Origin: a virus
Taxonomy: Duplodnaviria > Caudoviricetes
Direction: 5' to 3' (one strand)
Length of the DNA stretch: 64,000 bases
Virus record (IMG/VR): IMGVR_UViG_3300046467_000865
Span: 1-64,000 of that record
In this document: one piece after another, positions 6,503 to 27,196 of the stretch
How the letters are laid out: every line of letters begins with the position of its first letter
How positions within the stretch are numbered: position 1 is the stretch's first letter
Notes under the pieces: generated by a model
Told to the model about the DNA's origin: nothing
The model's input: the letters and a program-made list of their open reading frames with translations, nothing else
Databases searched by the model: none
Position numbers and translations under genes: made by a program

Positions 6503-6504
6503 TG

Positions 6505-9331: not shown

Positions 9332-10047
9332 TGCTTTCTCCTTATAGCCGCTATCGCGTTGAACGGACTTGTTTTTCCTCTAACCCAGCTTGTCAACTCG
9401 GTCTCTTTGAAATGCTTGATTTCTTTTTTAACCGGGATGTCTATTAGCTCAAATTCATTGTTATTCAAAATATAAGTGACCGCCTCGTCAAGTCTAAAGT
9501 CCTCGTCTTCGTTGGCAAAAAGCTCGTTGTAGTCATACTCTTTGCCAATGCTAGACTTTAGATCTGGCGACACATCATGAAAGGCTACGACTGCGTCTTT
9601 CGTTAACCAAGGTTTCACTTTATTAAAATCGTTGACAACTTGTTTGAACGAGTGAAAGCCGTCTATAAAAACAAAACTTAGTGGATCTTCGCTGTAATAC
9701 TCGTCCAAATTGTTGCTGTCGCATTCTATTTTTTTTGATAGGTCGGCAAAACCACCTTTGTGGTAGACGTTGTTGTCAAACATTCCATAAGCACCAAAAT
9801 CACAATCTACAGAATAAACGCTAGGTTGATTCCCCACAAGTCTTCTTGCGGAACATAATAGCACAGCAGACCCTCCACAAAAAGAGCCTATCTCCATCCA
9901 GTTCGCACTTGAGTCTGAATTTAGGGCCAACCACAATAAACACTCCTGCTCGTTGGGCCAAAGGCCTATTGCGTTTGGCATCCAGTGTGACAATATATCA
10001 AAGGTTCTAAACTTGTAGAGCAATGAATAAATTTTATCCTCATGCAT
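9328..10047 (-). CDS. Class I SAM methyltransferase (Methyltransf_24-like)
   Basis: MEIGSFCGGS, FVFIDGFHS, DFN..KPWL...VAFHD. Confidence 0.78.
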   Translation of the reverse strand: MHEDKIYSLLYKFRTFDILSHWMPNAIGLWPNEQECLLWLALNSDSSANWMEIGSFCGGSAVLLCSARRLVGNQPSVYSVDCDFGAYGMFDNNVYHKGGFADLSKKIECDSNNLDEYYSEDPLSFVFIDGFHSFKQVVNDFNKVKPWLTKDAVVAFHDVSPDLKSSIGKEYDYNELFANEDEDFRLDEAVTYILNNNEFELIDIPVKKEIKHFKETELTSWVRGKTSPFNAIAAIRRKQ

Positions 10048-11047
10048 CTACGACACCTCTAAACACTTCATTCCAGTTGTTAACAAATCCGTCCATGCCA
10101 AATTTTGATTCAATGGTCTGTCTAGCCATTTTGCCAAGACTAGCACAAAGATCCGGGTCGTTTAGAAGATCTACAAGATATTTCCTTAGTTCATCCTCGT
10201 TATTAGAACAAAAACCATTAATGCCATTTTCTATTATTTCGGGGATGAGACAAGTAGCCGTAGAGACAACTGCGCATCCACACGCCATGGCTTCTAGCAA
10301 AGAGCATGGAATTGGCGAATAGGTAGAGGTGTTAACAAAAATCTGAGATTCGGAGTATGCTGTTCTTAGTTCTTCTAGTGATCCAGCGGGTTGAGATAAA
10401 CCCGGAGTGTCACCAATAACATGGACTGGGAGACCCTTGGTTATTCTTTCCCATATGCTATATCCACAACACCAGTCTCTGTTTTTCCAGTCGTTAACAA
10501 CAGATAGCATCTGTTGCTTTTTTGGTATATCTTCCGCTTTCCAAAAATCTGTATCTACCCCATGGTGTACTACTAAAGCATTGCTTTCATCTCGACCCCA
10601 AACTTTTCTGTTGTAGTCAGATATAAATACGTCTAGGTCACCCGAAAGAGAGCTAAAGTGATCGTATTCTTGCTGGCTCCAGTTTGTCGGTGGTAATATA
10701 TGCCAAAGGTTTACCATCGGCAGTCGAAGCATCTGGGCCATCTGCATAGAGACATCGTAGTGAGCCATCACATTCTGACACAGGATAAGATCTATATCCA
10801 GATGCAGAGGAACTTGATTTCCTTCTTCGCGTTTGTCTAAAATTATGTAGTTGTCTGGGACGGGAGCGTATTTGGTGTTCCAGTCTCTTATACCCTCTCC
10901 CGTTAAGGCGTAAAAATTATGGCCAGTTTTACATAGATTGGGTTCGTATCTTTCGTGCGTAACGAAAGTGAGTATGTTCAACGGCTCGTCTGGAGACCGT
11001 GTTGCCGCTCTTGTGATAGATGAAACAGGACTAACTGGCATTTTCAA
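10040..11047 (-). CDS. GT4 glycosyltransferase
   Basis: VHHGVDTDFW; IPCSLLEAMACGCAVVST; IIENGING. Confidence 0.83.
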   Translation of the reverse strand: MKMPVSPVSSITRAATRSPDEPLNILTFVTHERYEPNLCKTGHNFYALTGEGIRDWNTKYAPVPDNYIILDKREEGNQVPLHLDIDLILCQNVMAHYDVSMQMAQMLRLPMVNLWHILPPTNWSQQEYDHFSSLSGDLDVFISDYNRKVWGRDESNALVVHHGVDTDFWKAEDIPKKQQMLSVVNDWKNRDWCCGYSIWERITKGLPVHVIGDTPGLSQPAGSLEELRTAYSESQIFVNTSTYSPIPCSLLEAMACGCAVVSTATCLIPEIIENGINGFCSNNEDELRKYLVDLLNDPDLCASLGKMARQTIESKFGMDGFVNNWNEVFRGVVDA

Positions 11048-12173
11048 GTAGTTCCTTGATTATCTTTCCTACGGTCTCATATGAATATTTTTTCACGTCT
11101 TCTTGCCCTGCTTTTCTCATTGCTTGATATGCGTCAGGATCATTTTTCCATAATTCAAATACGTGTCTCATAGCTTTTCTTAAACCGTTTATGTCTATAG
11201 ACCACCAATTTTCATTTCCCGTGTAGATATCATTGAAGGTTTCAACCATTCCAAACACAGGTTCGGCACGCACATCAACAAGTTGTCCACCCCCTCCTAT
11301 GTATTCCAACGGACCCCCCACACTGGAGCATATTGGCGTGTTTCCAAAACCCATTGCGTCGAGTGCCGGTATACCCCAAGCTTCCCCGTAGCTAGGCATA
11401 ACAAGACAATCACAGGTACAATGCATTGAATACATTTCTTGTTCTGTGATGTGATCAGTGGCGATCAATTCATATTTATAGTCTTCTATGGATGGATAAA
11501 TTTTCAAGTTTTCTTTTATCTGACGACACATTTCTTTAACGTGCTCTAGCGTTTCTTCTGGAGTTAATCCTTCTTTTGTTGTTTTAATAAAAAGGGATGC
11601 TGGCTCATTAACACCAAATTCTAAGTGGAACGCTTTGAGCAGGGCTACCAAATTTTTCCTTCGAATCATATCTCCTATAAAATAGAAACAGAACGTTTCT
11701 TCAATGTCTGGTATAGGAAGAGTTGGTCTGGATACTTCAAATTTTTCTACATCAGTAGCGCAAGGCACTATTTTTATAGGTATGTCTACACCACTATTAA
11801 TAGATGCCTCTTTCATTTGGTTGCAACACACCCACGCTTCGTCTAAGGAGTTGATTCTTTGTGGCCATGTTGAACCACTAAATGAGTCTGTTTCAGTAAA
11901 ATACAAACCTATGTTTTTGTCAAAATGTCCATTGTAATCCATTAAGTGCGGCAAAACATTTTGGATGCAAATGTTTGCGCCTTTCAACGGCTTTTGTTCA
12001 AGCTCGATGACTCTTTCTGGAATAGGAGTTATAGCGCTGTTAAGTTTGACCGGACGACAAACCACGTCAATTCCTGCGGCGTCCATAGCCAAAATGTAAT
12101 CAACAGCGGCTTGGCCCCAGCCTGTACCATCTCTATATACGCCTATAAATAATACTTTCATGCTGGCATCCAA
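11031..12173 (-). CDS. GT4 glycosyltransferase
   Basis: TGWGQAA, RRKNL, PSYGEAWGIPALDAMGFG. Confidence 0.83.
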   Translation of the reverse strand: MDASMKVLFIGVYRDGTGWGQAAVDYILAMDAAGIDVVCRPVKLNSAITPIPERVIELEQKPLKGANICIQNVLPHLMDYNGHFDKNIGLYFTETDSFSGSTWPQRINSLDEAWVCCNQMKEASINSGVDIPIKIVPCATDVEKFEVSRPTLPIPDIEETFCFYFIGDMIRRKNLVALLKAFHLEFGVNEPASLFIKTTKEGLTPEETLEHVKEMCRQIKENLKIYPSIEDYKYELIATDHITEQEMYSMHCTCDCLVMPSYGEAWGIPALDAMGFGNTPICSSVGGPLEYIGGGGQLVDVRAEPVFGMVETFNDIYTGNENWWSIDINGLRKAMRHVFELWKNDPDAYQAMRKAGQEDVKKYSYETVGKIIKELLENAS

Positions 12174-13819
12174 GATGGCCTTGGTTCAGTTATTTGTCCA
12201 ATACGTCTTTGTTCCCAATAATTTCTTAACCCACAAAGATTTGCCATCTGGTTATAAGCTTCTTGTAGATTAAAATCTTTAAAACTGGGTCTGTTGTAAG
12301 CAAAGGAGTCTTCATTGAAGTATAGACTTCCAGTTCCTTCTATAAAGACTCCGTAATTTAAGTCTCTTATCAGCCTTGCTTCCATATATGAATTAAGCTT
12401 GTCGGGATCTCCCAAGACGTTAATTATTAGCCATTTTGCCAAGTCCCTATTGTTTAAATCTTGAGGAACCTGCTCAGACGGCTGATGTATATTTGGTGGC
12501 GTTGACTCCCAGACCCCCTCTTGGAGAGGGACGGAGTCAAAATAGTCGGCCCACTTCTTAGCTGTATCGTCGTATTGATAACTTTTTTCAAAAGCCTTCC
12601 TAGTTTCAAGCCCTTGTTTTCTTTGCTCCTCTTTAGAGAGTGCAAAAAACTCTAGAAGTTTTTCAGTAGTGTATTCGTTGTCTGGGATCGCGCGCCAACA
12701 ACCAGTTTCAAGTTCTAGATATTTGGTTTTTAGCTTAAGCGGAGTCCCCTTTAGCCTTCTAATGACGCTGTGCATCGCAGAGTAGTCTACGGACATCACG
12801 GGCACGCCACAAGCAGCAGCCTCTACCTGTGGCAACCCAAAACCCTCGCTGTTGGCATATTGCAAATACAAATCAAACGTGTTGATGATCTTGCATAGGT
12901 ACTCCGAGGAAACACCTTTGTTCACATTTGATAGACTTGCTTTATATTGTTCACATCTTGGACATTGGGTGATAGCATCATAGAAAAATGATGGAAACGG
13001 GTGTTGACACTCTTCGCATACGTATGTGAAAAGAACCCTACTACACAAACCATATTGTTTTAATAGCTTGGGTATATCCCACCCAACGTCGGGGTAGCTT
13101 GTATGACAATATAGATACGCTTTACTATTGTCGGATGCGTCTAAATAATTTCTAAAAGATTCGAACAGATCTGGGAAAAGTTTGCGCCTTTGGTTGCGCA
13201 TTACAGTTCCAATAAGATCTATATCTTTGTCTATACCCATAGATTCTCTATGAGTTTCTTTGTCTGTAATAATTTGAAATACTTCGTCAGCCGAAGGGGG
13301 CGCACTACCTAAAATATTAATAGATGAACCCGCCTCCTTTTTTAGCGTGTGGATCGCCCAATCAGAATAGGTAAACACGGCATTGGCGCTGGAATAAGTT
13401 TCCAACCACTGCTCATTTTGCCCTTCCGCATCGACCGTTGGCATAATCACCCAATTGTACAATTGTCTAAATGGGGATCTGCTTTCAAACTCTATCATCC
13501 AAAAATCACGAATATCAAAAACAATATCTGGTTTAAAGTCTAATAGAACTTCCTCAAATCTAAACTCACCAAACTGATTATTGGGATTAGAGTGATAGTC
13601 TTGCGCGGCCTCCTTGTTAGAAGGTCTCGGACTATTGGGGTACGCTTTCCACGGTATATCTTGCAACCTTGGATCTTGTGGTTGCGCATAAACCGATAGC
13701 TCCGCAAGCTCGTACTTGTCGGAGCTATATAACCTTTTCATGACCTCTCGGCCATACGTGGCGTATCCAGTATTTAAAAAAGACGCTTCGTTACAAAGCA
13801 GTATCCTTTTTTTCCTCAT
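12158..13819 (-). CDS. GT4 glycosyltransferase with internal zinc-ribbon-like insertion
   Basis: TGYATY, RNQRRK, SEGFGLPQVEAAACGVPV; insertion CEEC...CPRC. Confidence 0.82.
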   Translation of the reverse strand: MRKKRILLCNEASFLNTGYATYGREVMKRLYSSDKYELAELSVYAQPQDPRLQDIPWKAYPNSPRPSNKEAAQDYHSNPNNQFGEFRFEEVLLDFKPDIVFDIRDFWMIEFESRSPFRQLYNWVIMPTVDAEGQNEQWLETYSSANAVFTYSDWAIHTLKKEAGSSINILGSAPPSADEVFQIITDKETHRESMGIDKDIDLIGTVMRNQRRKLFPDLFESFRNYLDASDNSKAYLYCHTSYPDVGWDIPKLLKQYGLCSRVLFTYVCEECQHPFPSFFYDAITQCPRCEQYKASLSNVNKGVSSEYLCKIINTFDLYLQYANSEGFGLPQVEAAACGVPVMSVDYSAMHSVIRRLKGTPLKLKTKYLELETGCWRAIPDNEYTTEKLLEFFALSKEEQRKQGLETRKAFEKSYQYDDTAKKWADYFDSVPLQEGVWESTPPNIHQPSEQVPQDLNNRDLAKWLIINVLGDPDKLNSYMEARLIRDLNYGVFIEGTGSLYFNEDSFAYNRPSFKDFNLQEAYNQMANLCGLRNYWEQRRIGQITEPRPSWMPA

Positions 13820-15292: not shown

Positions 15293-16972
15293 TCATATCT
15301 GGAAAACTTTTTTCACCACAAACCCATCGTAGGACTGAGAACGTCTTTTTCCTTTTGAGTCAGACCTTCCACCATGGAGTAGGACGGTGTTGCCTTCATA
15401 TAGCAAAGCCTTGTTATTTTTCCATTCGTCTGAAAAAACTGTAATATTGTCTAGAGCGCCACTACCATCTTCTACGCTTAAGAAGCCCATTTTTTGTCCC
15501 TTGGACCTACCTCTTTTAACTGTATATTCGTTTGCTCGCGCAATTTGTATGGCTAAAATTATATTACCATCCTTGCCATCAAAAAACTCTTTACATGTGC
15601 AATTGGAGGCGCTGGTGTCGCAAGCGTCTACTTCTGAATAAGTTAATGATATTCCCAGATATTCTTTTTCAGTATTAGACACCCAACTAGGACTATCGTC
15701 CAAAGAATAAGGTGGGTTTTCAATAAGAAGAACTAAGTCTGAAACGAGTTCACTTCTAGTCACGTTAAAAGTTCCACCGCCTAATTTTTTAGTAGGCGCA
15801 AGCATCTTTAAAGCACTTGATAATTCTCCCCATTGATCTCGCCTCTCTACAATCCACTCTCTCTCTTTGTCTGTAAGTTTTTGCCAAGTCTCTAGCTCAT
15901 AAAGCATCTTGTTTCTAGAGATCTTAAAATGAGACAATGCGCCAACTGATATGAGAGCCGTAATAACCCTTGCGTTAATCTTGTGAGACGCATTAACCAA
16001 AAACTCGTACCACACCCAATCTACAACAGGCTTGCCAAGCTCCACTTCTATACTATCTATAGTTTCCAACAGTTTTTCTACATGCTTGACCCCAACAGAC
16101 TTAATATCGTTGAACCCAAAATTGATTACATTATTTTTAATGCCAAACTTTGCAGACATGTTTGTCAGGGATGGTGGGGTTACATCTATTCCAGAAAGTT
16201 TGGCGTCTGTCACCAGATCACGTATTTCCGATTGTGTGTCCTGCTTCCCATCTGCAAAAAATAAATAGCTGCAATAGAAATTTACTGGAAAGTGAGCCTT
16301 TGCGTAAGCAGACCAATATCCGCATATGGCGTAAGAAACAGCATGACTTTTGTTGAAAGCGTACCTGTTGGATTTTTCGATCCACCCAAAAATTTCTTCG
16401 GCAACTTCGTCAGTAACGATTCCTTCCCTAGAAGCCCCCTCTATAAAAGACTCCTTTACTTGAGACATCAAGCCAGCTTGCTTTTTGCCGATAGCCTTTC
16501 TCAAGTTGTCTGCTTGTTGTAGATCAAACCCGGCAATAACTTGCGCTATTTGCATGCTTTGTTCTTGATACACAAGAACGCCTTGAGTAGACTTCAGAGT
16601 CGGCTCCAAAGAATCGTGTAGATAGGCAACGTCTTCCAGACCATTTTTTCTATCTACATAATGCTGGGTCATTGACTTACCGTCAATAATAGCTTTTAGA
16701 CATCCGGGTCTGATGAGAGCTATGAGAGCAGCAAGCTCTTCAATATTTCGTGGGCGTATTCTTTTGGCCCAAGATTTTCCTAAATTACTCTCTAGTTGGA
16801 ATACCCCTTTGGTTCTTCCAGCAGATATTAGATCCCAAGTCTTGTCACAATCGTATCCACATTGGTTAATGTCAAATTCCGTAGATGGTAACCCAGTTTG
16901 GGATAAAGTGACAGGGTGGTCTGGATCTAAAACCCCGAAAGAGCACCCGCAATCAAATTCGTAATTTTTCAT
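15293..16972 (-). CDS. dnaE: DNA polymerase III alpha subunit, C-terminal half (fingers, HhH, OB)
   Basis: TKGVFQLES, LIRPG, VLVYQEQ, LRKAIGKK, YAFNKSHAVSY, OB-fold MGFLSVEDGSG..VFSDEW. Confidence 0.92.
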   Translation of the reverse strand: MKNYEFDCGCSFGVLDPDHPVTLSQTGLPSTEFDINQCGYDCDKTWDLISAGRTKGVFQLESNLGKSWAKRIRPRNIEELAALIALIRPGCLKAIIDGKSMTQHYVDRKNGLEDVAYLHDSLEPTLKSTQGVLVYQEQSMQIAQVIAGFDLQQADNLRKAIGKKQAGLMSQVKESFIEGASREGIVTDEVAEEIFGWIEKSNRYAFNKSHAVSYAICGYWSAYAKAHFPVNFYCSYLFFADGKQDTQSEIRDLVTDAKLSGIDVTPPSLTNMSAKFGIKNNVINFGFNDIKSVGVKHVEKLLETIDSIEVELGKPVVDWVWYEFLVNASHKINARVITALISVGALSHFKISRNKMLYELETWQKLTDKEREWIVERRDQWGELSSALKMLAPTKKLGGGTFNVTRSELVSDLVLLIENPPYSLDDSPSWVSNTEKEYLGISLTYSEVDACDTSASNCTCKEFFDGKDGNIILAIQIARANEYTVKRGRSKGQKMGFLSVEDGSGALDNITVFSDEWKNNKALLYEGNTVLLHGGRSDSKGKRRSQSYDGFVVKKVFQI

Positions 16973-17633
16973 CGGCTAGAGCCTTTTCAAACTGAACTTT
17001 TGGGGCAAACAGTCTATACAATTTGAGAAATTTAATCAAAACGGTGGCGGTGTCTTTGACATCTTGTAGAGCGTCGTGGGCGTTGTCTTTGGGGATTCCC
17101 ATCCAATCACGAATGGAGTCCATGCTGACGCTTCTGATATCGGGATTGTTTTCGGTCCACATAAACACATTTCGCATCAAATCCATACGATGGATAGGAT
17201 GAAACAACGATTGCACGTTTCTCTTTTTATCTAATGGCCCGTGTTCTTGACATAACCTTTCTGCTATAATCATGTCAAAATTTTCTATATTATGACCGGC
17301 GGCTATGGGGGCCGTCCAGCTAGTTTTTTTGAAGTTGAATTTTTCAATATACTTGTTAAATCTATGCCAGACGGTTTTGGGGTGCGGTGCTTTTGCGAGT
17401 TCTGATCTAGTTTTTTTATTAATCGCAAGAGCCTCCTCTTCTAAGGGGTCAAGACCCGCCGCAATCGCGTCCTCATCTTTAAGTGGCTTAATTAGAGATT
17501 CAAAATAACCATTAGGTTGTACTGTTAATTTACGACCATGTATCATAACGGCAGCGATTTGTACCGGCTGCGTAGTACGCGGATTTCTACTTCCGGTTTC
17601 AAAATCAAACACGCAAATATCATTATAGTTCAT
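16953..17633 (-). CDS. DEDDh 3'-5' exonuclease (DnaQ/epsilon-like)
   Basis: VFDFETG, AGHNIENFD, HDALQDV. Confidence 0.87.
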   Translation of the reverse strand: MNYNDICVFDFETGSRNPRTTQPVQIAAVMIHGRKLTVQPNGYFESLIKPLKDEDAIAAGLDPLEEEALAINKKTRSELAKAPHPKTVWHRFNKYIEKFNFKKTSWTAPIAAGHNIENFDMIIAERLCQEHGPLDKKRNVQSLFHPIHRMDLMRNVFMWTENNPDIRSVSMDSIRDWMGIPKDNAHDALQDVKDTATVLIKFLKLYRLFAPKVQFEKALADEKLRI

Positions 17634-18717
17634 TCTTATCCTCGTTTTCGCCTACCAATATATTCATTTTTTCATTAAACTTCTCGAAGTCTATATCATG
17701 ATATCTCACACACTTTCTTTCGTCAAAATTACCCTCCGCTAACAAATAAGCGCCGCACGCTGTAGGCAAACCGGTAGATCTTTGCATGGCTGAAAATCCG
17801 CCTTGTGGCGGTATTAACAACTCCTGTATTTTGTCGTCTATGGAAATGTATATTAGTACACAATCTTCGCCATTATCAAACTTGCACTTTCTTAAGAAAA
17901 TTTCTTTCAGCAAGTCTCTATCTAGTTCAATCCCATTAATTAAGAGGTCTACAGTTTTTGCATGTCCGGGCCATCTAAGAGTGCGATACGAAACATTGAC
18001 CGCTCCAAGATCCTTCATTCTTTGAATAGTGTGCGAAGACCCCCCGCTTGTATAGAAACCCTCTAGATCCCCTAGAGATTTAGTACTTATTTTTGTATAG
18101 CCGCCCAAAGAATTGTAAGTGGTTTCTTCCCCATTTTCTAAGACAGCGCAGCTTTCTGTATATTCATTCAGAAGACCTTCTACCGACCATGTGCAATAGT
18201 AGTTGAAATGGTCATTCTTGTTGTAGAGCCTTGGTATGCCGCCAACCATAATAGATACGGTTTCAGGATTCTTGTCTTCTTGATCAGCAATTTGTTTATA
18301 AAAAGCCTCTGCTAATATGTTTGCTAAACCCGGAGCAAGCCCTATGTCAGTCATCACGGGCTTTGACGCAAACTTAGAAGCGAAGTCGTTTATCTCGTTG
18401 CTTATTTCAACGTTCCCACCAAGATCACAATATCTTATGCCGTTTTTAATACAGTGTTTTGCTAGGATTAAATTTTTGTGGTAAGGAAGAGAGGAGACAA
18501 CCACGTCTGGATACGGTCGCCCTAGACTGTTTGGAAGATCCAAACTTTCTGGGTTTGTTATAGTCCGTAGTTCTGCGTCTTGCTCAAGTATGCTATTGCA
18601 TTTTTGCAAAGACTCTGAAGAAACATCTATTAAAATTAGGTGGTCGCAACCTAGTTTCTCCACAGCCCATGCTATGGGTTTCCCCATTCTACCGCAACCG
18701 AAAATAGCCACTTTCAT
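17623..18717 (-). CDS. Saccharopine dehydrogenase family, most like lysine 6-dehydrogenase
   Basis: GCGRMG, CDLGG, DIGLAPGLANILA, VGGIP, WSVEGLLNEY, LEGFYTSGG, YRTLRWPGH. Confidence 0.82.
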   Translation of the reverse strand: MKVAIFGCGRMGKPIAWAVEKLGCDHLILIDVSSESLQKCNSILEQDAELRTITNPESLDLPNSLGRPYPDVVVSSLPYHKNLILAKHCIKNGIRYCDLGGNVEISNEINDFASKFASKPVMTDIGLAPGLANILAEAFYKQIADQEDKNPETVSIMVGGIPRLYNKNDHFNYYCTWSVEGLLNEYTESCAVLENGEETTYNSLGGYTKISTKSLGDLEGFYTSGGSSHTIQRMKDLGAVNVSYRTLRWPGHAKTVDLLINGIELDRDLLKEIFLRKCKFDNGEDCVLIYISIDDKIQELLIPPQGGFSAMQRSTGLPTACGAYLLAEGNFDERKCVRYHDIDFEKFNEKMNILVGENEDKNEL

Positions 18718-19553
18718 TGCACTGCTCTTCCTTTAAGATCTTCCCAGTCTTTTTCTGGTCTGACCACCAAGTTGGTGTCCCACGCCCCAATTAGAGTGTT
18801 GGGAGATATTCCAAAGTCTGCTGCGTGTTGTATGATAGCGTTGAGATCTTTTGGAAAACAACTTCCGCCGAACCCAAGATTTCCATCTGGGCCGGGAACT
18901 GACCAGTGAGAGTCCCCCAGTCGCTCGTCGTGTATAGCATACTCGACCACCTTGTCGTAGTCAACCCCGTTCTCCTCGCACATGGCGGCGAATTCGTTTG
19001 CTAGCGATACTTTGACAGCTAGGAAACAATTGGTAAGATATTTGACATATTCTGCGATAGTTGAATCTGTTTTTATAATAGACGCTTTAGGAAAAACATT
19101 TGCGTAGAATGATCTCAATCTTGTGGTTGCTGGCCTAGGACCGCCCAAAATAACACGAGTAGTATTACGAAAATCTTCCGCTGCGTTTCTTTCCAGTAAG
19201 AATTCTGGATTGAACACAATTTGTGAATCTGCGCACATTTCGTTTAGATATTTTGTTGTGCCGGGAGGAACAGTGGATTTGATTACTATAATGTTTCTTC
19301 TACCGGTTTTACAAGCGGATATACATACCTGCTCTACTATCGACGTGTCACAAGAACCATCTGGTTTCATCGGGGTCGGCACACACACGAAGACCACGTC
19401 GCAATCATAGGCTAGATGCTGTACAGACTTATGGGTGGATAAGTGTTTATGCGCTTTGTCATAAGTATACACTCTGTTGTAACAGGAGAAAACTTCGGTT
19501 AGCGCCGATCCTACAAAGCCCTGTCCTACTATTCCCACTGTTCTTATTTTCAT
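18714..19553 (-). CDS. UDP-glucose/GDP-mannose dehydrogenase family, lacking C-terminal domain
   Basis: GQGFVG, CVPTP, KSTVPPG, NPEFL, KYLTNCFLA, GGSCFPKD; start placed at the ATGA overlap with the lat stop. Confidence 0.82.
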   Translation of the reverse strand: MKIRTVGIVGQGFVGSALTEVFSCYNRVYTYDKAHKHLSTHKSVQHLAYDCDVVFVCVPTPMKPDGSCDTSIVEQVCISACKTGRRNIIVIKSTVPPGTTKYLNEMCADSQIVFNPEFLLERNAAEDFRNTTRVILGGPRPATTRLRSFYANVFPKASIIKTDSTIAEYVKYLTNCFLAVKVSLANEFAAMCEENGVDYDKVVEYAIHDERLGDSHWSVPGPDGNLGFGGSCFPKDLNAIIQHAADFGISPNTLIGAWDTNLVVRPEKDWEDLKGRAVQ

Positions 19554-20758
19554 AGATTTTCTATAGCCTCTTTTATATATTGACACGCTGCACTCGCATC
19601 CTCTTCAGAGAATGTAAGAGCGGGCCTAAGTCTAATTGATCTACTGCCGCACTTTAATACGAGCATATTTTCTTGTAACAACTCTACCGCTCTATCACGT
19701 AGTTCCGACGATGGCAGATCAAACGCTATCATAAGTCCCCTACCACGAACATTCTCAATTACAGAAAACGTTCTTAATTCCCATAGCAGTTGGCGACCGA
19801 CATCGTGGGCGTTTTTAACTAGATCATTGCGCTGAATGGCGTCTATTATATATTTGAATCGAACCATGTCTACAATATTGCCACCCCATGTAGAATTTAT
19901 TCTACCACTAGTATTGAAGACGTTGTGTTTGACTTCATCAATTCTCTCAGTGGAACAAAAGCCACACACTTGAGTTTTTTTACCAAAGCACATCATGTCT
20001 GGCACAACACCAAAGTGCTCATAGGACCACATTTTACCAGTCAAGCCCATGCCGGTTTGCACTTCGTCAAAGATAAGTAAACAGTCTCGTTCGTCGGCTA
20101 TGCGTCTTATATTTGTAAAAAACTCTGGCGGAAAATGGTTATCTCCACCCTCGCCCTGTATCGGCTCTATGATAATCGCAGCAACTTCTTCGTGGACACG
20201 ACGTTCGATATTTTCCCAATCAGGCTCTACGGTAGTCCAGCTAAATTTTGGAAATAAAGAGGTCTTCTCTGGAGTTGTGTTGGTCAAAGACAGGGTGTAG
20301 CCTGTTCTGCCATGGAAAGCGTTTTTAAGGTGAAATATATCTAGATTGTTGATGTCAGACGTGTGAGTATATTTTAGTTTTTGTGCCTTCCAGTCAAAAG
20401 CAGCCTTTAAAGCATTCTCTACGCCCAAGGCGCCGCCCTCAATAAAAAAGTAGTACTTAAAATCGGGGGTAATCTCAGAGAACTTTTCTACAAAATCTGC
20501 ATATTCCTCTGAGTACATGTCGCTGTTAGCCAGTTTTACCCGGCCAGCATAGCCCATTTCTGATTGGGCTTTAATCAGTGCTGAGTGCTTCCAGCCAAGA
20601 GACTGGCTTGCAAATTGTGAATAGCAGTCTAAATATTTCTTTCCCGTATTTAAGTCTACAATCCAACTGCCAAAACTTTTTTGATGATCCACAACAACAT
20701 GAAAGCCGTCTACAAGGATATATTTTTCAAGAGTTTCTATAGCCTTAGCGTTAGACAT
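19550..20758 (-). CDS. lat: L-lysine 6-transaminase (class III PLP aminotransferase)
   Basis: FHGRTGYTLSLT, EPIQGEGGD, FDEVQTG, FGKKTQVCG, RINSTWGGN. Confidence 0.83.
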   Translation of the reverse strand: MSNAKAIETLEKYILVDGFHVVVDHQKSFGSWIVDLNTGKKYLDCYSQFASQSLGWKHSALIKAQSEMGYAGRVKLANSDMYSEEYADFVEKFSEITPDFKYYFFIEGGALGVENALKAAFDWKAQKLKYTHTSDINNLDIFHLKNAFHGRTGYTLSLTNTTPEKTSLFPKFSWTTVEPDWENIERRVHEEVAAIIIEPIQGEGGDNHFPPEFFTNIRRIADERDCLLIFDEVQTGMGLTGKMWSYEHFGVVPDMMCFGKKTQVCGFCSTERIDEVKHNVFNTSGRINSTWGGNIVDMVRFKYIIDAIQRNDLVKNAHDVGRQLLWELRTFSVIENVRGRGLMIAFDLPSSELRDRAVELLQENMLVLKCGSRSIRLRPALTFSEEDASAACQYIKEAIENL

Positions 20759-21537
20759 TTAATAGCTCCTCCAGATTTCACAAATTCTGACATATCGCAT
20801 ATAGATGTTTTTTTACCAGAAAACGACAAGGAAAACATATCTGATGGGGTCACAACCGTTTCGTTGATTTCAATACTGTTACAAAGAAAATCTTGAGCTT
20901 GTTCTTCATGAATACTCAGAATGTCAAGAACTCCGATATCATGGCCGATGTCCACAAACTTATCAATCATCCAAGCTTGCGAAGAACTGGAGAAAGCGTC
21001 TTTATAATAGACAACCCTGCCGTTCATTGGAAAGAAGCATGTGTCAAGGTGGTAAAATCTTGGATCAACAAGTTCACAAGACACATAGTCAACGCCAAGA
21101 GCGCCTGCTATTATACTGTGTGCCTCTATATCCGTTCTAAAACCATACCCCATGAACAGAACGTCGTTTAGAAAAAGAGCGTCTCCCTCTCCTTCAAAAC
21201 ATATATGGTCTGGTATTTCAATGACCCTGTAGCCCCTTTTTAAAAACCAGTCTTTGAAGAACCATTTTTCATGCTGTCTTTCTTTATGTCTAAAGTTTGA
21301 CAGTATGACATTTTTCCCATATACAAGACCCGCGTTAGCCGTAAATACCATATCTGGGTATCCACGCTCGGGTTCTATATACCTGAGATTTGCACCGGCT
21401 TTGATCAACCGGTCACACATCCTGTGCCACTGATTGGCCGCAATTTCTCCTTCAACGCCTAAGTTGAGATCCATCCAAGGGTTGATTTCATAATCTATGT
21501 TAAAATGTGTTGGCTTACACACTAAAAGATCAGTCAT
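20737..21537 (-). CDS. Amidinotransferase / pentein family (arginine dihydrolase or DDAH-like)
   Basis: YEINPWM, PDMVFTANAG, FEGEGD, FYHLDTCF, GGAIKCLT catalytic Cys. Confidence 0.88.
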   Translation of the reverse strand: MTDLLVCKPTHFNIDYEINPWMDLNLGVEGEIAANQWHRMCDRLIKAGANLRYIEPERGYPDMVFTANAGLVYGKNVILSNFRHKERQHEKWFFKDWFLKRGYRVIEIPDHICFEGEGDALFLNDVLFMGYGFRTDIEAHSIIAGALGVDYVSCELVDPRFYHLDTCFFPMNGRVVYYKDAFSSSSQAWMIDKFVDIGHDIGVLDILSIHEEQAQDFLCNSIEINETVVTPSDMFSLSFSGKKTSICDMSEFVKSGGAIKCLTLRL

Positions 21538-23023
21538 CTACACCAGTCTTCATACCTTGTGGGAAACTGAGAGAGTCTCCATGATTTACAGTCCAAGCAA
21601 CCTCGTGGGTAACCGATCTAAACGTGCGAGCAGCACTAGGCTGACCATTGCCAGACTTCTTCACCCCTCCAAATCCGAGATGAGATTCAGCAGCAATGCT
21701 GCCGCCATTCCAATAACCAAGACCAAAGTCACACTCGTCGCGAATCCTTCTCGCCACCTTGAAGTTTTCTGTTACCACACCTAGAGCAAGCCCATAATCA
21801 GTGTCGTTGTAAATCCTAATAGCATCATCAACTGTATCGTAAGGAATAATTGATACATGAGGTCCAAACACCTCTTGCTTAAGATATGGAACATCTCTCC
21901 ATTCCGTTTGATATACCGTAGGTGTTAAGAGTAGACTGTCGCCGTCTCGTTTTCCCATGAGCAGAACATCTGCCTCTGGGTCTGCTTCAACCATCTCGTT
22001 GAACTCTATGACTCTTTCGAGTTGCTTTTCGTTAATAAGAGGTCCGTAAAAGGTGTTGTCGTCAAATGGGTCTCCAGTCTGTAGATCACCGCTTCTGTTA
22101 GCAAATTCGTCCGCAAATTTATTGTATAAAGAGCGGTGGACAATCAACCTGCTAGCAGACACACAGCGTTGACCAGATAGTTTGTAAGCGCTGGCCAAGC
22201 ATGCGGCCATTGCCAGATCATAATTTGCGTCTTCATGGATGATTACCGCTGATTTACTTCCCATTTCGCAAGAACAAGTTTTATGCCAGCTTTCTGCACA
22301 CACTTTGCGAACGTGCATGCCAACATCGGCGCTTCCGGTAAAACACACATGATCTATATCACCTTTGATAAGTCTATCTCCAACCTCTCCGTCTCCATGA
22401 ATCATATTGAAGACTCCGGGTGGGAATCCAGCAGCTTCATATAACTCTGCTGTTATTTGCCCAGCCCAAGATACATCTTCGCTTGGCTTTAGAACCACAG
22501 TATTGCCTTCAACCAAAGCTGGACCAGCACACCAGAAGCCACCAATAGCAAAAGGAAAGTTAAAAGGAGCAACAATAGCAATAACACCCTTTGGTTTCCT
22601 AAGCATGTACGCATCTTTTTCGGGTAACTCCGACGCAATCGCTTCTCCATAAGGCATTCTTCCTGTGCTAAAAGCGTATTGAGCCATATGCAAAGCTTCG
22701 TTGACTTCTGCAATAGACTCGTTTAATACTTTTCCAGTTTCCAAACTAATGATAGAAGCTATTCGATTAATATTTTTTTCTACTAGTTCTGCGAGCTTGA
22801 AAAAATATCCTGCACGCTGATATCTGCTAAAAGAACGCCAACCATCAAAAGCGTCACGAGCAAAAGCGCACGCAGAATCAACCGCCGCAGAAGAAGCTTG
22901 GGGAAACGCACCTAAAATTTTCCCATCGGCTGGGTTCTTGCTATCAAACAAAGAGTCGTCTGAGCCAGAGACCCATTGATTGTTAATAAAGTGCTTTCCT
23001 TCTACGATTTGATAAGTGGTCAT
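21530..23023 (-). CDS. NAD(P)-dependent aldehyde dehydrogenase (candidate aminoadipate- or glutamate-semialdehyde dehydrogenase)
   Basis: PFNFP, GNTVVLKPSE, FTGS, CEMGSK, GQRCVS, EVFGP, FGGVKKSGNG; start moved to ATG 23023 (ATGA overlap). Confidence 0.92.
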   Translation of the reverse strand: MTTYQIVEGKHFINNQWVSGSDDSLFDSKNPADGKILGAFPQASSAAVDSACAFARDAFDGWRSFSRYQRAGYFFKLAELVEKNINRIASIISLETGKVLNESIAEVNEALHMAQYAFSTGRMPYGEAIASELPEKDAYMLRKPKGVIAIVAPFNFPFAIGGFWCAGPALVEGNTVVLKPSEDVSWAGQITAELYEAAGFPPGVFNMIHGDGEVGDRLIKGDIDHVCFTGSADVGMHVRKVCAESWHKTCSCEMGSKSAVIIHEDANYDLAMAACLASAYKLSGQRCVSASRLIVHRSLYNKFADEFANRSGDLQTGDPFDDNTFYGPLINEKQLERVIEFNEMVEADPEADVLLMGKRDGDSLLLTPTVYQTEWRDVPYLKQEVFGPHVSIIPYDTVDDAIRIYNDTDYGLALGVVTENFKVARRIRDECDFGLGYWNGGSIAAESHLGFGGVKKSGNGQPSAARTFRSVTHEVAWTVNHGDSLSFPQGMKTGVDD

Positions 23024-23604
23024 TTTACTTCCTTTGTAGATTCCATTAAGTGCTTGACCGAATTTTGACAAAACCCCTTGTGTCCTCTTTCTATTAACTC
23101 TACTATAATTCCGCCCATTACATTTAGAGGCTTGGTGAATATTTGTTTTAGGTCGTCCTCTGGACAATCGATAACTTCTTCTGTTAAAAATTCTACATCA
23201 AGCTCTTTCCACTCTTTAACAATCTTGTTTATGTTCTTAACAGAATAAGCCATATGGTGAATCCCACCACCATTTCTAGCTTTCACCCAATCTCCAACTA
23301 TAGAGCCTTCACTTCCGTCGCTAATAAAGATTTCTGGAGCAAGATGATAGTTGGTGTCGTGGGAGGGGGAAAATAAAACCCATGGTGGGTCCATGTGGCT
23401 CAATCGCACCGGTCTATCTTTGGAAGGAGGACTCGGGCGCTTTCTGGTTCTTTCTGGAGGAGTCATGACTATGCACTCGGCAGTGGATCCATCGTCGAAC
23501 TTTATGTCAAATTCTGTCCCAACAACGTAACCAAACGTTTGTTTTATAAACTGGGCTGTTTCGTGTCTGCTGGATACTCTATAGGCTATATGGTCTAACC
23601 TCAT
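23020..23604 (-). CDS. VOC superfamily metalloenzyme (HPPD/HglS-like Fe dioxygenase)
   Basis: LDHIAY, GGGIHHMAY, KQIFTKP..ELIER..GF..N...LMEST; His/His/Glu metal triad. Confidence 0.68.
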   Translation of the reverse strand: MRLDHIAYRVSSRHETAQFIKQTFGYVVGTEFDIKFDDGSTAECIVMTPPERTRKRPSPPSKDRPVRLSHMDPPWVLFSPSHDTNYHLAPEIFISDGSEGSIVGDWVKARNGGGIHHMAYSVKNINKIVKEWKELDVEFLTEEVIDCPEDDLKQIFTKPLNVMGGIIVELIERGHKGFCQNSVKHLMESTKEVK

Positions 23605-23828
23605 CCGTATAATCTCTTTTTTATTTCTAAGTACTTTTTAACAGCCTTTGGTAACTCATCATTGTTATATAATTGAGAAAATCTAGCTCTATAATCACTG
23701 CAATCTACTTGAAATTTTTTGCTTTTTAGTTGTGGATAGTAATCATTCAAGCAGCATAATGAAAGTTGATTACATTCGACAGCCGACCCATCTCGCAGTG
23801 TTGATTCATAAACTAGTTGATTAGTCAT
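23601..23828 (-). CDS. Hypothetical protein (75 aa)
   Basis: ATGA overlaps at both ends. Confidence 0.55.
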   Translation of the reverse strand: MTNQLVYESTLRDGSAVECNQLSLCCLNDYYPQLKSKKFQVDCSDYRARFSQLYNNDELPKAVKKYLEIKKRLYG

Positions 23829-25744
23829 TTTATAATTCCATTTTTTAGTTGATAAGATACTCCCATAATTTTGTCCAAAAAGCTAATTCCAAGTATATCA
23901 AACTTCACATGCCCCATTGCTTCCAAATCCTCCATTTCGAGTCCAGCAATCTTGTCTGAACCTCTTTTTTCGCGCACCATGGGGCACACTTGGTTTAAGT
24001 TTTCCGAAGAAATTACAACGCCAGCAGCATGCTTGCCTTGAGATTTGTAAGTGCCTTCCAACCGAATGGCTTGTTCAAAAAGCTTACCAAGATCTCCACC
24101 AAGACTGCCGTCTTCATTCACGATACACCAATCCTTCAGATCATTTGGTTGATTAATTAGTGCCCATCTAATGATAGAAGGATCTTCCATATCCTGTAGC
24201 TGGTCAGATATTTCAGCTTCAGATGGAATATTCTTTGTTATTTCGTTCATCTCAGCATAGCTGCAAGAATCGTGAACTCTTAAAACCTCTTTCAAAGCAG
24301 TGCGCCCTTGCATTCTACCGAACGTTATCATCTGTCCGACTTGTTCTTTTCCATAAGACTCTTTCATGTAATTGATTACCGACTCTCTTTTTGCAGTCGG
24401 AACGTCAATATCAATATCAGGCAAAGAAACCCTGCCGTCTGCATTGCGCCCTGCGTTGTAGAATCTTTCAAAAATTAAATCATGCTGAATTGGGTCTACC
24501 TTTGTTATACCAATCAGATAGGAAATAAGACAACCTGCGGCAGAGCCTCTGCCCGGACCCGGAAGCCATCCATTTTTTTTCACGTTGTCAACAATGTCTT
24601 GAACTATCAAAAAATATCCTGAGAGATTAGCGCCTTGTATTACAGACAACTCCTGTTTTATTCTTTTTGCATATGTTTCATTTTTGGATGGATCTGAAAC
24701 CACTCCGGTTAGCTGTAGCTTGTGTTTCCAACCCTCCCTACACAGATGCCTAAGATATTCATCTTCAGACATTTCATTTGGGCAAGGAAATCTGGGAAGC
24801 ATTGGTTTGCCAAGAATATTGTATTCTTCGCACATATCTGCAACCAACCTTGTGTTAGCTATTTCTGACTCAGAGTTGATCGCAGAGATTTCTTCTTGGG
24901 AGGGAATATGATATCTGTTAGATTTAAAGAACACACCAAGTCCGACATCCTCGTGGTTGTCAAGTTTTCGCTGCACTTCTTTGAGCGTAGTTCGCATAGC
25001 TGAACACAGAAGGATTCTTTGGTCAGCGGCGTCTTCCATGGATGGGTAATGGGAATCCGCTGTAGCTATGCATGGTATGCCAGTTTGTTTGCTTATGTAT
25101 CTTAAAGCCTCCGCAGTTACGGTTTGTGCGGGAGACATCTCTTGATCAATTAGTTGTATCTCAAGGAAAAAGTTGTCCTTTCCAAATATCTCTCTGTATT
25201 TTTCAGCAAGCTGGGTTGTTTTGCTGACCCAATCTGGATCAACAAAAGATTTTGCTTGTTCATAGGTGTTAGACCGGTAAGCAGATTTATAGTCCGAAAA
25301 GATAATATTAGACAGTTGGCTACCTAGGTGTCCAGAAAAGCTGATCAAATCCCCGTTACAGTATTCAGCCAGAGTGTCTAAATCAAGGCGTGGTTTGTGA
25401 TAGAACACCTCCTCGTCATTACTAGCAGAGGTTGCTTCTATAAGCTTACACCAGCCATCAAAGTTTTTAGCCAGCACAACCAAGTGGCTTAGCTGTCTAT
25501 TTTCCTTGTCTTTTATACACGGGTCTTGCTCGCATAAATAGAACTCACAACCCAATATAGGTTTGATATTCTTTTTTTGCATCTCTTTGACGAATGAAAC
25601 GGCTCCAGAAATCGTGCCGTGATCGGTGATGGCGCAAGCGTCGTACCCAAGGGTCTCACAGCGCTCTGCGACTTGCGAAGGCTTTGAGAGGCCGTCTAAC
25701 AAGCTGTAGTGTGTGTGCAAGTGTAGCGGAATCCAACTCGACAT
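23825..25744 (-). CDS. dnaE: DNA polymerase III alpha subunit, N-terminal half (PHP, palm, thumb)
   Basis: HLHTHYSLLDG, ITDHG, TADSHY, GPGRGSAAG, LIFERF, SLPDIDID, GKHAAGVVI, VKFDILG then stop. Confidence 0.94.
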   Translation of the reverse strand: MSSWIPLHLHTHYSLLDGLSKPSQVAERCETLGYDACAITDHGTISGAVSFVKEMQKKNIKPILGCEFYLCEQDPCIKDKENRQLSHLVVLAKNFDGWCKLIEATSASNDEEVFYHKPRLDLDTLAEYCNGDLISFSGHLGSQLSNIIFSDYKSAYRSNTYEQAKSFVDPDWVSKTTQLAEKYREIFGKDNFFLEIQLIDQEMSPAQTVTAEALRYISKQTGIPCIATADSHYPSMEDAADQRILLCSAMRTTLKEVQRKLDNHEDVGLGVFFKSNRYHIPSQEEISAINSESEIANTRLVADMCEEYNILGKPMLPRFPCPNEMSEDEYLRHLCREGWKHKLQLTGVVSDPSKNETYAKRIKQELSVIQGANLSGYFLIVQDIVDNVKKNGWLPGPGRGSAAGCLISYLIGITKVDPIQHDLIFERFYNAGRNADGRVSLPDIDIDVPTAKRESVINYMKESYGKEQVGQMITFGRMQGRTALKEVLRVHDSCSYAEMNEITKNIPSEAEISDQLQDMEDPSIIRWALINQPNDLKDWCIVNEDGSLGGDLGKLFEQAIRLEGTYKSQGKHAAGVVISSENLNQVCPMVREKRGSDKIAGLEMEDLEAMGHVKFDILGISFLDKIMGVSYQLKNGIIK

Positions 25745-25746
25745 TT

Positions 25747-26298
25747 TCAGTGTCCTACGGGGTCAAGATCCTTGTACGGCAGATTGTGACAATCAGTAGA
25801 AACCTTCCAGCCATTAGAAGGGTCTATGTCACCCTTTGCATAGAAACGAGCCTGTTCAAAATATTCCTTTGCGTCTTTTTGTCCGCAAACCCAAGCTCTA
25901 ACAGGCTTATTTCCCTCAAACTGAATGCTTGTAAAAATATATATGTCTGGTTTTTGATGCGCACTAGTTTCCGCTACAGAGGCGTCGTAATAGTCTCTAG
26001 GAGGAACGGTCCTGCGCTTGGACTTAACCTCTATCTTTTTTTTACCTTTTATCAAATCGTGGTTGTATTTTTCTTCGCCCTCGTTGTTACTGATTATCTC
26101 GGCTTGGATATAATTGGCGACAATTTCCTCACCGAGATAACCAGCAAAATTTCCTTTGCCCTTGAGAATAGAATTATTTATCTTACCTAAATTTTTAGCC
26201 TTAGCTTGAGCGCTACTTACCATTTGTTCAGTAAATGGCACTTCTACGAGATTACTTTTTTTGGTTGAACTTTTCATAAATGTATCGCGCTGTCGCAA
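25747..26298 (-). CDS. Hypothetical, possible PD-(D/E)XK nuclease
   Basis: GEEIV...HDL...IEVKSK pattern. Confidence 0.42.
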   Translation of the reverse strand: MRQRDTFMKSSTKKSNLVEVPFTEQMVSSAQAKAKNLGKINNSILKGKGNFAGYLGEEIVANYIQAEIISNNEGEEKYNHDLIKGKKKIEVKSKRRTVPPRDYYDASVAETSAHQKPDIYIFTSIQFEGNKPVRAWVCGQKDAKEYFEQARFYAKGDIDPSNGWKVSTDCHNLPYKDLDPVGH

Positions 26299-27196
26299 CG
26301 TCCTCTATAGCTAGTCCTGTGGCATCAAATAGCGTGGTCCGACATCCGCTTGTCTCTACTCTGCCTTGAATCACTTCTGCTATCGGACACCATATCTGCG
26401 AAATCTTACTCTTCTTAGCATACTGTATCTCTCCAGAGTGGGAGCATTGGACCCACTCATCATACGCAACGAGATCTACGTTTTCAAGAACGCACTGGTG
26501 GAGTTCTCTTTTTCCTTCTGCGTCTGCTCCAACAGCATTAATATGGACTACTGGTTTTAGGTATCTGTATTTAATAAATGGTTTACGTGAAGGAGTCAAC
26601 GTTGTAACTATATCCACGTCCCACAAACAATTTTCAAGATCGTTGTGTACTTCTATTTCTATGGGACTCTCTTGTCTGACTTCTAAATAATTCAAATCAT
26701 CTTTTAACTTATTTGCTCGATCTTCACTAAGATCAAACAGCCGAATAACTTCAATGTCTCTTACAGAAAGCACCGCTTCTATTTGTCTAAGTGTTTGATT
26801 TCCACAGCCGATAAATGCCGCTTTTTTGGAGTACTTGGGAGATAGATGTTTAGTTGCGACTCCCGTCACTGCGGCGGTACGAATAGCGGTAAGAGTTTCT
26901 GCGTCTAGAATAGCTAGCAGATCTCCAGTTTCGATATCATTGATCATCACCATAGCAAAGATGTTGATCTTGCCAGCTTCCTTGATGTTGAGTCCAGCCC
27001 ATTTGATTCCTGCTGTATTGCCTACTACCGCTGGCATTGCTCGAAAGTCCCCGTTTGGGACATTCATATATACCTTTGGTGGCATTTGCGTATTGTCAAT
27101 GTTTTTAAATAGGTCTTCTACAAGTTCTATACAGGCTGGTACTGAGAGTAAATCCGCTACTTCATCATTGGTAAAATATTTAACCGGGAGCATCAT
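26252..27196 (-). CDS. Ornithine/lysine cyclodeaminase - mu-crystallin family
   Basis: GDFRAMPA, LTAIRTAA, IGCGNQ, HINAVGAD..GKREL, FDATGLAIEDVA. Confidence 0.87.
   Translation of the reverse strand: MMLPVKYFTNDEVADLLSVPACIELVEDLFKNIDNTQMPPKVYMNVPNGDFRAMPAVVGNTAGIKWAGLNIKEAGKINIFAMVMINDIETGDLLAILDAETLTAIRTAAVTGVATKHLSPKYSKKAAFIGCGNQTLRQIEAVLSVRDIEVIRLFDLSEDRANKLKDDLNYLEVRQESPIEIEVHNDLENCLWDVDIVTTLTPSRKPFIKYRYLKPVVHINAVGADAEGKRELHQCVLENVDLVAYDEWVQCSHSGEIQYAKKSKISQIWCPIAEVIQGRVETSGCRTTLFDATGLAIEDVATARYIYEKFNQKK

Follow-up and report, generated by a model that had tools for sequence, protein, structure and literature searches.

No other amino acid is as rich in nitrogen as arginine. In the arginase pathway of Bacillus (RocF-RocD-RocA), it is attacked by arginase, acting with urease, and the omega-amino group of the resulting ornithine is transaminated to give a semialdehyde that is oxidized to glutamate. 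The lat-pcd pair, represented by Mycobacterium tuberculosis (Lat structure 2cin) and by a Verrucomicrobiales locus (L092), combines the aminotransferase Lat with a 1-piperideine-6-carboxylate (P6C) dehydrogenase. Known auxiliary metabolism of phages comprises photosynthesis, nucleotide, sulfur, phosphate and polyamine genes. In cyanobacteria, ArgZ and AgrE form ornithine from arginine, releasing CO2 and ammonia (PMC8262935). Among viruses, the closest documented case is that of the published polyamine pathways, namely ADC-AIH-NCPAH-HSS of PBCV-1 and the homospermidine synthase (HSS) of phage phiRSL1 (PMC9992855). Here, a stretch of 64,000 nucleotides (positions 1 to 64,000 of IMG/VR record IMGVR_UViG_3300046467_000865, hereafter the window) was analyzed, in which the two halves of a split dnaE gene enclose a cassette built around genes for an aldehyde dehydrogenase (ALDH), a pentein and a Lat-family aminotransferase.

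The reading we favor, to which we give about an even chance on the strength of the sequences, is that the cassette is a mobile viral auxiliary metabolic unit that breaks down basic amino acids for nitrogen. Such a route would share with the cyanobacterial pathway the logic Arg -> Orn + 2 NH3 + CO2, followed by glutamate formation (PMC8262935), whereas the phage would continue from ornithine with an aminotransferase and an ALDH, in the manner of RocD and RocA, instead of ornithine cyclodeaminase and PutA. With RocF-RocD-RocA it would share the later steps, but its first enzyme would be a dihydrolase rather than arginase plus urease. The viral polyamine pathway is likewise virus-encoded, multi-step and arginine/ornithine-derived, and also employs pentein-fold and saccharopine-dehydrogenase-fold enzymes; however, it is biosynthetic and includes decarboxylases, whereas the cassette encodes no decarboxylase but an aminotransferase along with an ALDH, and L-lysine 6-dehydrogenase (LysDH), rather than HSS, is the nearest relative of its saccharopine-dehydrogenase-fold protein.

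A conserved three-gene core at several sites in viral genomes

The 38 viral loci fetched with Lat (loci and contigs carry the prefix L) were surveyed by tblastn, and further contigs were taken from public assemblies. About 20 of the 38 loci contained the cassette, and cassette contigs came from polar, subtropical (Station ALOHA) and Tara samples. In every variant the core was the same, with the genes for ALDH, pentein and aminotransferase in fixed order and with overlapping junctions, and a gene for a VOC metalloenzyme was usually located 5' of the trio. Genes for a LysDH-like protein and for a protein of the ornithine cyclodeaminase (OCD)/mu-crystallin family were accessory; they were absent from most cassette contigs and mutually adjacent in L015, where the OCD-family gene directly follows the LysDH-like one. 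At least four insertion sites were found among related viral contigs: between dnaE-N and an exonuclease gene (the window and its closest relatives); within a glycosyltransferase operon (L014, L036); in an island beside cytidylyltransferase, dCMP-deaminase and GlmS-like genes that continues with DUF2784, rIIB, DUF1501 and glycosyltransferases (L039-42, L129, L130); and beside a class-I aldolase (L015).

In a maximum-likelihood tree, the cassette Lats formed a single clade (support 98/96), sister to other viral Lats and distant from cellular Lat. Lats from the dnaE context did not group together in this tree, which means that the cassette has changed place or recombined from site to site. The cluster was found in none of 80 cellular loci with pentein homologs (from Verrucomicrobiota, Cyanobacteria, Planctomycetota and others), whose best pentein was 46% identical to that of the phage. 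With one Lat clade and no cellular locus carrying the cluster, the cassette is, as judged by gene content and phylogeny, virus-specific, mobile and under selection. Since it occupies other sites in related phages, its linkage to dnaE is incidental to its function.

Two neighbors seen in other contexts were rejected as cassette members. A protein of about 135 residues encoded upstream of the VOC gene elsewhere is HAD-like and has its ortholog in the window at 37837-38241 (134 aa), away from the cassette, and DUF2784, found downstream of the cassette elsewhere, has no counterpart in the window. Contigs from Station ALOHA (L039:7637-8014, also L040-L042) encode a 125-aa protein with a weak SET-domain match between ALDH and pentein; the window lacks it.

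A pentein related to cyanobacterial arginine dihydrolases

The pentein gene (20737..21537, minus strand, core gene 2) encodes 266 amino acids that aligned end-to-end (residues 4-266) with the biochemically characterized dihydrolase domain of Synechocystis ArgZ (Sll1336; PDB 6jv0/6juy, 9.6e-64) and matched AgrE of Anabaena (Alr4995; PDB 6lrf, 7.4e-62). In 10 phage pentein homologs, residues N68, E115, H163 and D165 were invariant and the Cys of a C-terminal KCLTL motif was nearly so. These positions (TAN Asn, Glu, His-x-Asp, Cys) align with identical residues of Sll1336, and we take them to correspond to the numbered catalytic residues of ArgZ. With a homologous domain (about 1e-63) and aligned catalytic positions, the protein is predicted to be an ArgZ/AgrE-like arginine dihydrolase, of hydrolase rather than amidinotransferase type. 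It differs from ArgZ/AgrE in being virus-encoded, in scoring below the NCBIfam family cut-off and in standing alone, without a C-terminal ornithine cyclodeaminase-type domain, on which independent gene calls agree. In some bacteria (loci L059, L083, L079, L088), a pentein gene adjoins one for a class-III aminotransferase or an ALDH.

The Lat-family aminotransferase and the aldehyde dehydrogenase

The third core gene (19550..20758, minus strand) encodes a class-III aminotransferase of 402 amino acids that scored 473.7 bits with TIGR03251, the next family reaching 214 bits. It matched M. tuberculosis Lat (2cin) at 1.2e-103, compared with 2.4e-45 for GABA-AT, and is 48% identical to the Lat of L092. 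Motifs FHGR, EPIQGEGG, FGKK, STWGGN and VRGRG were invariant in the phage aminotransferases; they presumably contain the counterparts of the pyridoxal-phosphate lysine and of the substrate-contacting Arg, Glu and Thr of M. tuberculosis Lat. These matches assign the protein unambiguously to the Lat family. As in the lat-pcd pair, its gene has an aldehyde dehydrogenase gene beside it; unlike in that pair, a pentein gene is intercalated, Lat carries a deletion and scores below the family cut-off, and the ALDH belongs to another subfamily.

The ALDH (21530..23023, minus strand, core gene 1) is an NAD(P)-dependent enzyme of 497 amino acids (PF00171, 415.7 bits, 2.7e-124). Its start was placed at the ATG at 23023, which overlaps the VOC stop, and a longer TTG-start open reading frame (ORF) was rejected as an artefact. 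The catalytic Cys, the general-base Glu, the Asn and the NAD-binding motifs were invariant in 11 phage homologs. Among NCBIfam models, KGSADH scored best (308 bits), followed by GSA-DH (276 bits) and P6CDH (258 bits); no equivalog was reached, and the protein lies about equidistant from many subfamilies. Its identification as an ALDH7-type P6C dehydrogenase was rejected, given a P6CDH cut-off of 730 bits, a score of 764 bits for the L092 partner, and 25% identity to that true P6CDH.

The viral Lats of the sister clade lie in another neighborhood. In 7 of 17 loci, genes for a glutamate dehydrogenase and a trypsin-like peptidase were found within 4 kb of Lat (L020, L022, L023, L025, L026, L030, L033; e.g. 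L022:9370-14805), and in three further loci a peptidase gene lay beside Lat. These large viral contigs, the longest of 532 kb, form a group of their own, and in L022 a LAGLIDADG endonuclease is encoded nearby. Lat paired with glutamate dehydrogenase is a transdeamination arrangement. This suggests that viral Lats generally act in the metabolism of amino-acid nitrogen and lends contextual support to the favored route, and the neighborhood looks like a second viral module for amino-acid deamination.

Accessory and neighboring enzymes

The LysDH-like protein (17623..18717, minus strand, 364 aa; PF03435 + PF16653) has a saccharopine-dehydrogenase fold. Its best match, in sequence (2.2e-17) as in structure, was the equally compact L-lysine 6-dehydrogenase of Pyrococcus horikoshii (PDB 3abi). 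The structural model (pLDDT 89) retrieved 3abi as top Foldseek match (E 5e-22, TM 0.76-0.80), although the two proteins are only 22-24% identical; AASS-SDH, carboxyspermidine dehydrogenase, saccharopine reductase and homospermidine synthase came next. The protein matched no curated NCBIfam family model. The modeled fold would fit an omega-deaminating function.

The OCD-family NAD(P) enzyme (26252..27196, minus strand, 314 aa; PF02423, 3.9e-70) was much closer to alanine dehydrogenase (1omo/1vll, 8.6e-54) than to true ornithine and lysine cyclodeaminases (4.5e-20 with 1x7d, and 3.8e-14). Its best NCBIfam model was archaeal alanine dehydrogenase (214 bits, below the cut-off of 409), and it scored 130 bits with the OCD equivalog PRK07589, whose cut-off is 350. 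Its identification as a true ornithine cyclodeaminase was therefore rejected.

The VOC metalloenzyme (23020..23604, minus strand, 194 aa; PF13669) has a single domain, as opposed to the two-domain architecture of HPPD and HMS, with a putative His-His-Glu triad; H5, H116/H117 and E169 were invariant across homologs. Profile comparison with PDB matched methylmalonyl-CoA epimerase over the full length (8.3e-10) and revealed an HPPD-type C-terminal tail, and in Foldseek searches with the model (pLDDT 73) the epimerase tied with HMS/HPPD. Relatives were mostly viral, in virus-dominated ESM Atlas clusters. Residues ~50-88 (window 23337-23455) form a Pro/Arg/Ser-rich insertion of ~30-40 residues, modeled with pLDDT <50, that is peculiar to this lineage; most homologs are without it.

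The gene at 18714..19553 (minus strand) encodes a short UDP-glucose-dehydrogenase-like (UGDH-like) protein of 279 amino acids (PF03721 + PF00984) that scored 192.2 bits with TIGR03026, just above the cut-off of 189.8. It retains the motifs STVPPGT, NPEFLLE, KYLTN and GGSCFPKD, to which we assign the catalytic roles that they have in UGDH structures. It covers model positions 60-292 of 413 and ends ~35 residues past the catalytic Cys, without the UDP-binding domain. The short UGDH family, with members at L043:10001-10849 and in L131, comprises >100 clusters at 50% identity, of ~265-310 aa, and is abundant in marine metagenomes. In related Tara contigs its gene lies beside RecA without the cassette, and in L015 it lies ~9 kb from the cassette. 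The short UGDH is a family-wide gene of these phages and probably belongs to their glycan-synthesis set.

A first-pass annotation of the window had proposed a lysine/arginine catabolic operon. Its arginine dihydrolase of pentein fold, its Lat and its lysine 6-dehydrogenase-like protein agree with the closest relatives described above. The accompanying label of amidinotransferase is replaced by that of a hydrolase-type ArgZ relative, and the ALDH does not qualify as the P6C-oxidizing partner of Lat. An OCD step to proline or pipecolate is not specifically supported, the protein being nearest to alanine dehydrogenase, and the name dioxygenase for the VOC protein is not warranted, since methylmalonyl-CoA epimerase fits as well as HPPD/HMS.

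The proposed route and its alternatives

In the route that we favor, the pentein would hydrolyze L-arginine to L-ornithine, two NH3 and CO2. The Lat-like enzyme would then pass the omega-amino group of ornithine, and probably also of lysine, to 2-oxoglutarate, forming glutamate and glutamate-5-semialdehyde (or 2-aminoadipate semialdehyde), and the ALDH would oxidize the semialdehyde to glutamate (or 2-aminoadipate) with production of NAD(P)H. For arginine, the net reaction would be Arg + 2-oxoglutarate -> 2 Glu + 2 NH4+ + CO2 + NAD(P)H. NAD-linked omega-deamination by the LysDH-like protein and an imine or alanine dehydrogenase step by the OCD-family protein would be accessory side routes. The chemistry of the trio is self-consistent. 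The aminotransferase requires a free omega-amine, and a dihydrolase alone yields one, unlike a deiminase or DDAH. Substrates and direction of flux are those that we infer from the enzyme families, and the purpose would presumably be to supply nitrogen, glutamate or reductant for replication and amino-sugar synthesis. Where the cassette is inserted between dnaE-N and the exonuclease gene, as in this lineage, its enzymes would probably be co-produced with the replisome.

Several observations weigh against this route. All three core proteins score below the cut-offs of the models for the functions assigned to them: the pentein reached 254.9 bits with NCBIfam Arg_dihydro (NF052232; cut-off 450); the aminotransferase fell below the TIGR03251 equivalog cut-off of 520.8, compared with 552 for the cellular Lat of L092; and the ALDH missed both GSA/P5C-DH cut-offs (PRK03137, 276 vs 648 bits; TIGR01237, 257 vs 660 bits) as well as that of P6CDH. 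With the DDAH-Mtb model the pentein scored a nearly equal 218.8 bits (cut-off 300), so that its reaction may be citrulline-forming. The aminotransferases of the cassette clade share a deletion of 25-30 amino acids relative to true Lat, and the ornithine aminotransferase model, to which RocD belongs, scored this Lat-like protein only 154 bits. The VOC and short UGDH genes accompany the core in most contigs without a role in the scheme, and the cassette lies repeatedly among glycan genes. Glutamate dehydrogenase was not found in cassette-bearing phages, and proline dehydrogenase as a partner was only sporadic, with one weak match in five contigs.

Among other explanations, a pathway centered on lysine is unlikely. 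Lat and the LysDH-like protein would both generate 2-aminoadipate semialdehyde/P6C and the ALDH 2-aminoadipate, arginine hydrolysis being a side branch; the route would continue by transamination and conversion of 2-oxoadipate to 2-hydroxyglutarate by an HglS-like VOC enzyme, or through the OCD-family protein to pipecolate. The aminotransferase is indeed far nearer to Lat than to ornithine or GABA aminotransferases, and L-lysine 6-dehydrogenase is the top structural match of the saccharopine-dehydrogenase-fold protein, but the LysDH-like and OCD genes are missing from most cassette contigs, alanine dehydrogenase is the nearest relative of the OCD-family protein, and the ALDH falls outside the P6C dehydrogenase type. 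The HPPD/HMS-type tail of the VOC protein, its matches to HMS/HPPD catalytic domains and a weak ESM Atlas link to viral HglS clusters (0.91) would suit the terminal step, yet the epimerase is matched equally well, and neither a 2-aminoadipate aminotransferase nor a 2-hydroxyglutarate dehydrogenase was identified. The invariant pentein, encoded between ALDH and Lat, would be left without a role. Still less probable is a polyamine or opine-type synthesis, which we regard as very unlikely, in which the saccharopine-dehydrogenase-fold enzyme would reductively condense a semialdehyde with an amine. Carboxyspermidine dehydrogenase, saccharopine reductase and homospermidine synthase were all significant structural matches, and viruses are documented to encode homospermidine synthases and a pentein, agmatine deiminase (PMC9992855); however, LysDH was best in score, TM and length, the gene is missing from most cassettes, the cassette includes no decarboxylase, and the presence of an ALDH that would compete for the aldehyde speaks for its oxidation.

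A role in glycan or sugar tailoring is distinctly unlikely, though it would make use of the short UGDH. This enzyme would oxidize the C6 hydroxyl of a non-UDP sugar, the aminotransferase would aminate or the ALDH oxidize the aldehyde, and the pentein would use arginine as amidino donor or act on a guanidino-sugar, with a product that decorates phage glycans. Aminoglycoside pathways achieve 6'-amination with just such a pairing of a dehydrogenase and a class-III aminotransferase. The aminotransferase stop codon is overlapped by the UGDH-like gene, whose product keeps all catalytic residues of UGDH but lacks the UDP-binding domain; the short UGDH, however, occurs without the cassette and at a distance from it in L015, and in L014 and L036 the trio has no adjoining UGDH. 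The window encodes at least eight glycosyltransferases, a cytidylyltransferase, an NDP-sugar epimerase and methyltransferases, the cassette sits inside a glycosyltransferase operon in L014/L036, and in L039/L129/L130 it lies between GlmS-like/cytidylyltransferase and glycosyltransferase/sulfotransferase genes, but glycan genes are so many in these phages that such adjacency is expected by chance. In addition, the pentein and the aminotransferase are 45-48% identical to amino-acid enzymes, and the sister viral Lats associate with glutamate dehydrogenase and peptidases, not with sugar genes. There is a slim chance that no nitrogen is scavenged at all and that the trio and the short UGDH build an amino- or guanidino-sugar (acid) for glycans, virion or DNA, which would account for the repeated landing of the cassette among glycosyltransferase genes. 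A similarly small probability attaches to the same chemistry serving another aim, namely depletion of arginine (and lysine) to shut down translation or growth of the host, starve rival phages or blunt an arginine- or polyamine-dependent defense. The first committed step would be an irreversible, arginine-destroying hydrolysis, gene order in this lineage would place expression with early/middle replication genes, and viruses manipulate arginine- and ornithine-derived polyamines (PMC9992855); nevertheless, a single hydrolase would suffice for this aim, and conservation of the aminotransferase and the ALDH suggests that carbon and nitrogen are recovered.

The cassette within the split dnaE gene

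The window has a G+C content of ~40% and nearly all its genes are on the minus strand. In gene order from 32373 to 13791, genes for DnaB helicase, primase, dNMP kinase, ThyX and a PD-(D/E)XK nuclease are followed by the OCD-family gene, a hypothetical gene and dnaE-N, upstream of the cassette, and dnaE-C is followed by genes for a hypothetical protein, SSB and a sigma factor. The hypothetical gene before dnaE-N (25747..26277, minus strand, 176 aa by independent gene call) matched no Pfam, NCBIfam or PHROG entry; its longest ORF extends to 26298, but it was called with 176 aa in L126 and is also kept in L001, L002, L016 and L018. The N-half of DNA polymerase III alpha (23825..25744, minus strand, 639 aa) comprises PHP and palm/thumb (PF02811, 1.6e-38; PF07733, 5.2e-72, the match spanning the entire model), and the C-half (15293..16972, minus strand, 559 aa) comprises fingers, HhH and OB domains (PF17657, 3.5e-46; PF14579, 4.5e-09). 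The cut thus lies between the palm/thumb (PF07733) and fingers (PF17657) domains, and no intein signature was seen at the split.

Every gene named in the first-pass annotation was found in place on the minus strand with Pfam/NCBIfam models and the ORF list. Its count of five enzymes between the dnaE halves becomes six, since the five are there but the UGDH-like gene had been missed; the halves also enclose a 75-aa ORF and the gene for an RNase T/DnaQ-type 3'-5' exonuclease (16953..17633, minus strand, 226 aa; PF00929, 7.1e-12). The 75-aa ORF (23601..23828, minus strand), read from the sequence, occupies an apparent 220-nt gap after dnaE-N and overlaps its neighbors by ATGA at each end. It is lineage-specific, was independently called in L126 and L128, and did not resemble the ~135-aa proteins encoded before the VOC gene elsewhere. 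Ten minus-strand genes therefore run from dnaE-N to dnaE-C, and their nine junctions overlap by 4, 4, 4, 8, 22, 4, 4, 11 and 20 nt, as the claim of a 4-22 nt overlap at every junction had it. The conclusion drawn from this, that there is no room for internal promoters, does not follow, since promoters may also lie within the coding sequence of genes that overlap. In a consensus scan, promoter- and terminator-like sites were at chance level (38 vs 37.6 expected, and 12 vs 13.5 expected); co-transcription with dnaE is therefore a plausible inference. Of the idea that the cassette is wired into the replication transcript, the tight coupling holds for this locus, but a general link to dnaE does not, the arrangement being lineage-specific.

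In L014 (L014:611-4524) and L036, whose cassettes are located elsewhere, the exonuclease gene alone separates the dnaE halves. A split dnaE with an embedded gene for a proofreading exonuclease is therefore ancestral in the phage family, and the cassette is a later insertion into an already split polymerase gene.

The glycan genes, of which the window holds unusually many (5438-13819, 44662-45633, 55352-57582, 60110-60991), encode GT1, GT2, GT47/RXYLT1-like and CAP59-like proteins, the IspD-like cytidylyltransferase, the NDP-sugar epimerase and several methyltransferases.

Phage origin of the window

We take the window to be of phage origin, as the first-pass annotation had done. In addition to the replication genes named above, it encodes RNR, RecA, PhoH, dUTPase and a radical-SAM protein, the last three in 59338-60105 and 38364-39493, and the cluster has viral genes to either side of it (dnaE halves, exonuclease, SSB, primase, DnaB). 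Its arrangement is shared by five IMG/VR contigs with 77-86% Lat identity, and three contigs assembled independently from other samples encode an identical Lat protein, with the same order and independent gene calls. The junctions are thus not chimeric, since independent assemblies reproduce the gene order. A cassette-bearing relative, G005, is 161 kb long and 100% complete by CheckV, and a 655-aa ORF in it matches the terminase ATPase domain. No close phage was found in GenBank, the nearest dnaE-N relatives being ~35% identical. T4-type Gp23, Terminase_6C and HK97 capsid models gave no matches, an uninformative result given that the Gp23 control was equally silent.

The window also encodes a full-length DUF1501 protein (61308-62567, 1e-71), of a family expanded in Planctomycetota and Verrucomicrobiota, with orthologs near the cassette in L039 and L129. 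Together with Verrucomicrobiota as the nearest cellular relatives of pentein and Lat, it gives a possible hint of the host. Two trypsin-like proteins (PF13365) of 315 and 698 amino acids are encoded at 46168-47115 and 47959-50055, and orthologs of the larger one lie 8-10 kb downstream of the cassette in L010-L013 and L130.

Significance of the cassette

A full-text literature search found no paper on arginine dihydrolase, Lat or DDAH in a phage or auxiliary metabolic gene (AMG) context, and a global ocean AMG catalogue contained no lysine or ornithine catabolic entries, its creatine/GAMT AMG being unrelated. As far as found, a conserved viral multi-enzyme route dismantling arginine, ornithine and lysine is apparently undescribed in the searchable literature. 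The expectation that the set was new as a phage module is to that extent borne out; it is not rare, however, but common in marine viral contigs.

The stand-alone viral ArgZ homolog, the deleted Lat variant and the compact LysDH-like enzyme are targets for biochemistry, and the cassette exemplifies a metabolic unit that moves from site to site, in this lineage even into a split DNA polymerase gene. If the favored route is true, infected cells would obtain two glutamates and two ammonium ions from arginine at the very time when synthesis of nucleotides and amino sugars is highest, and, with its wide marine spread, the cassette could influence nitrogen flow in infected marine bacteria.

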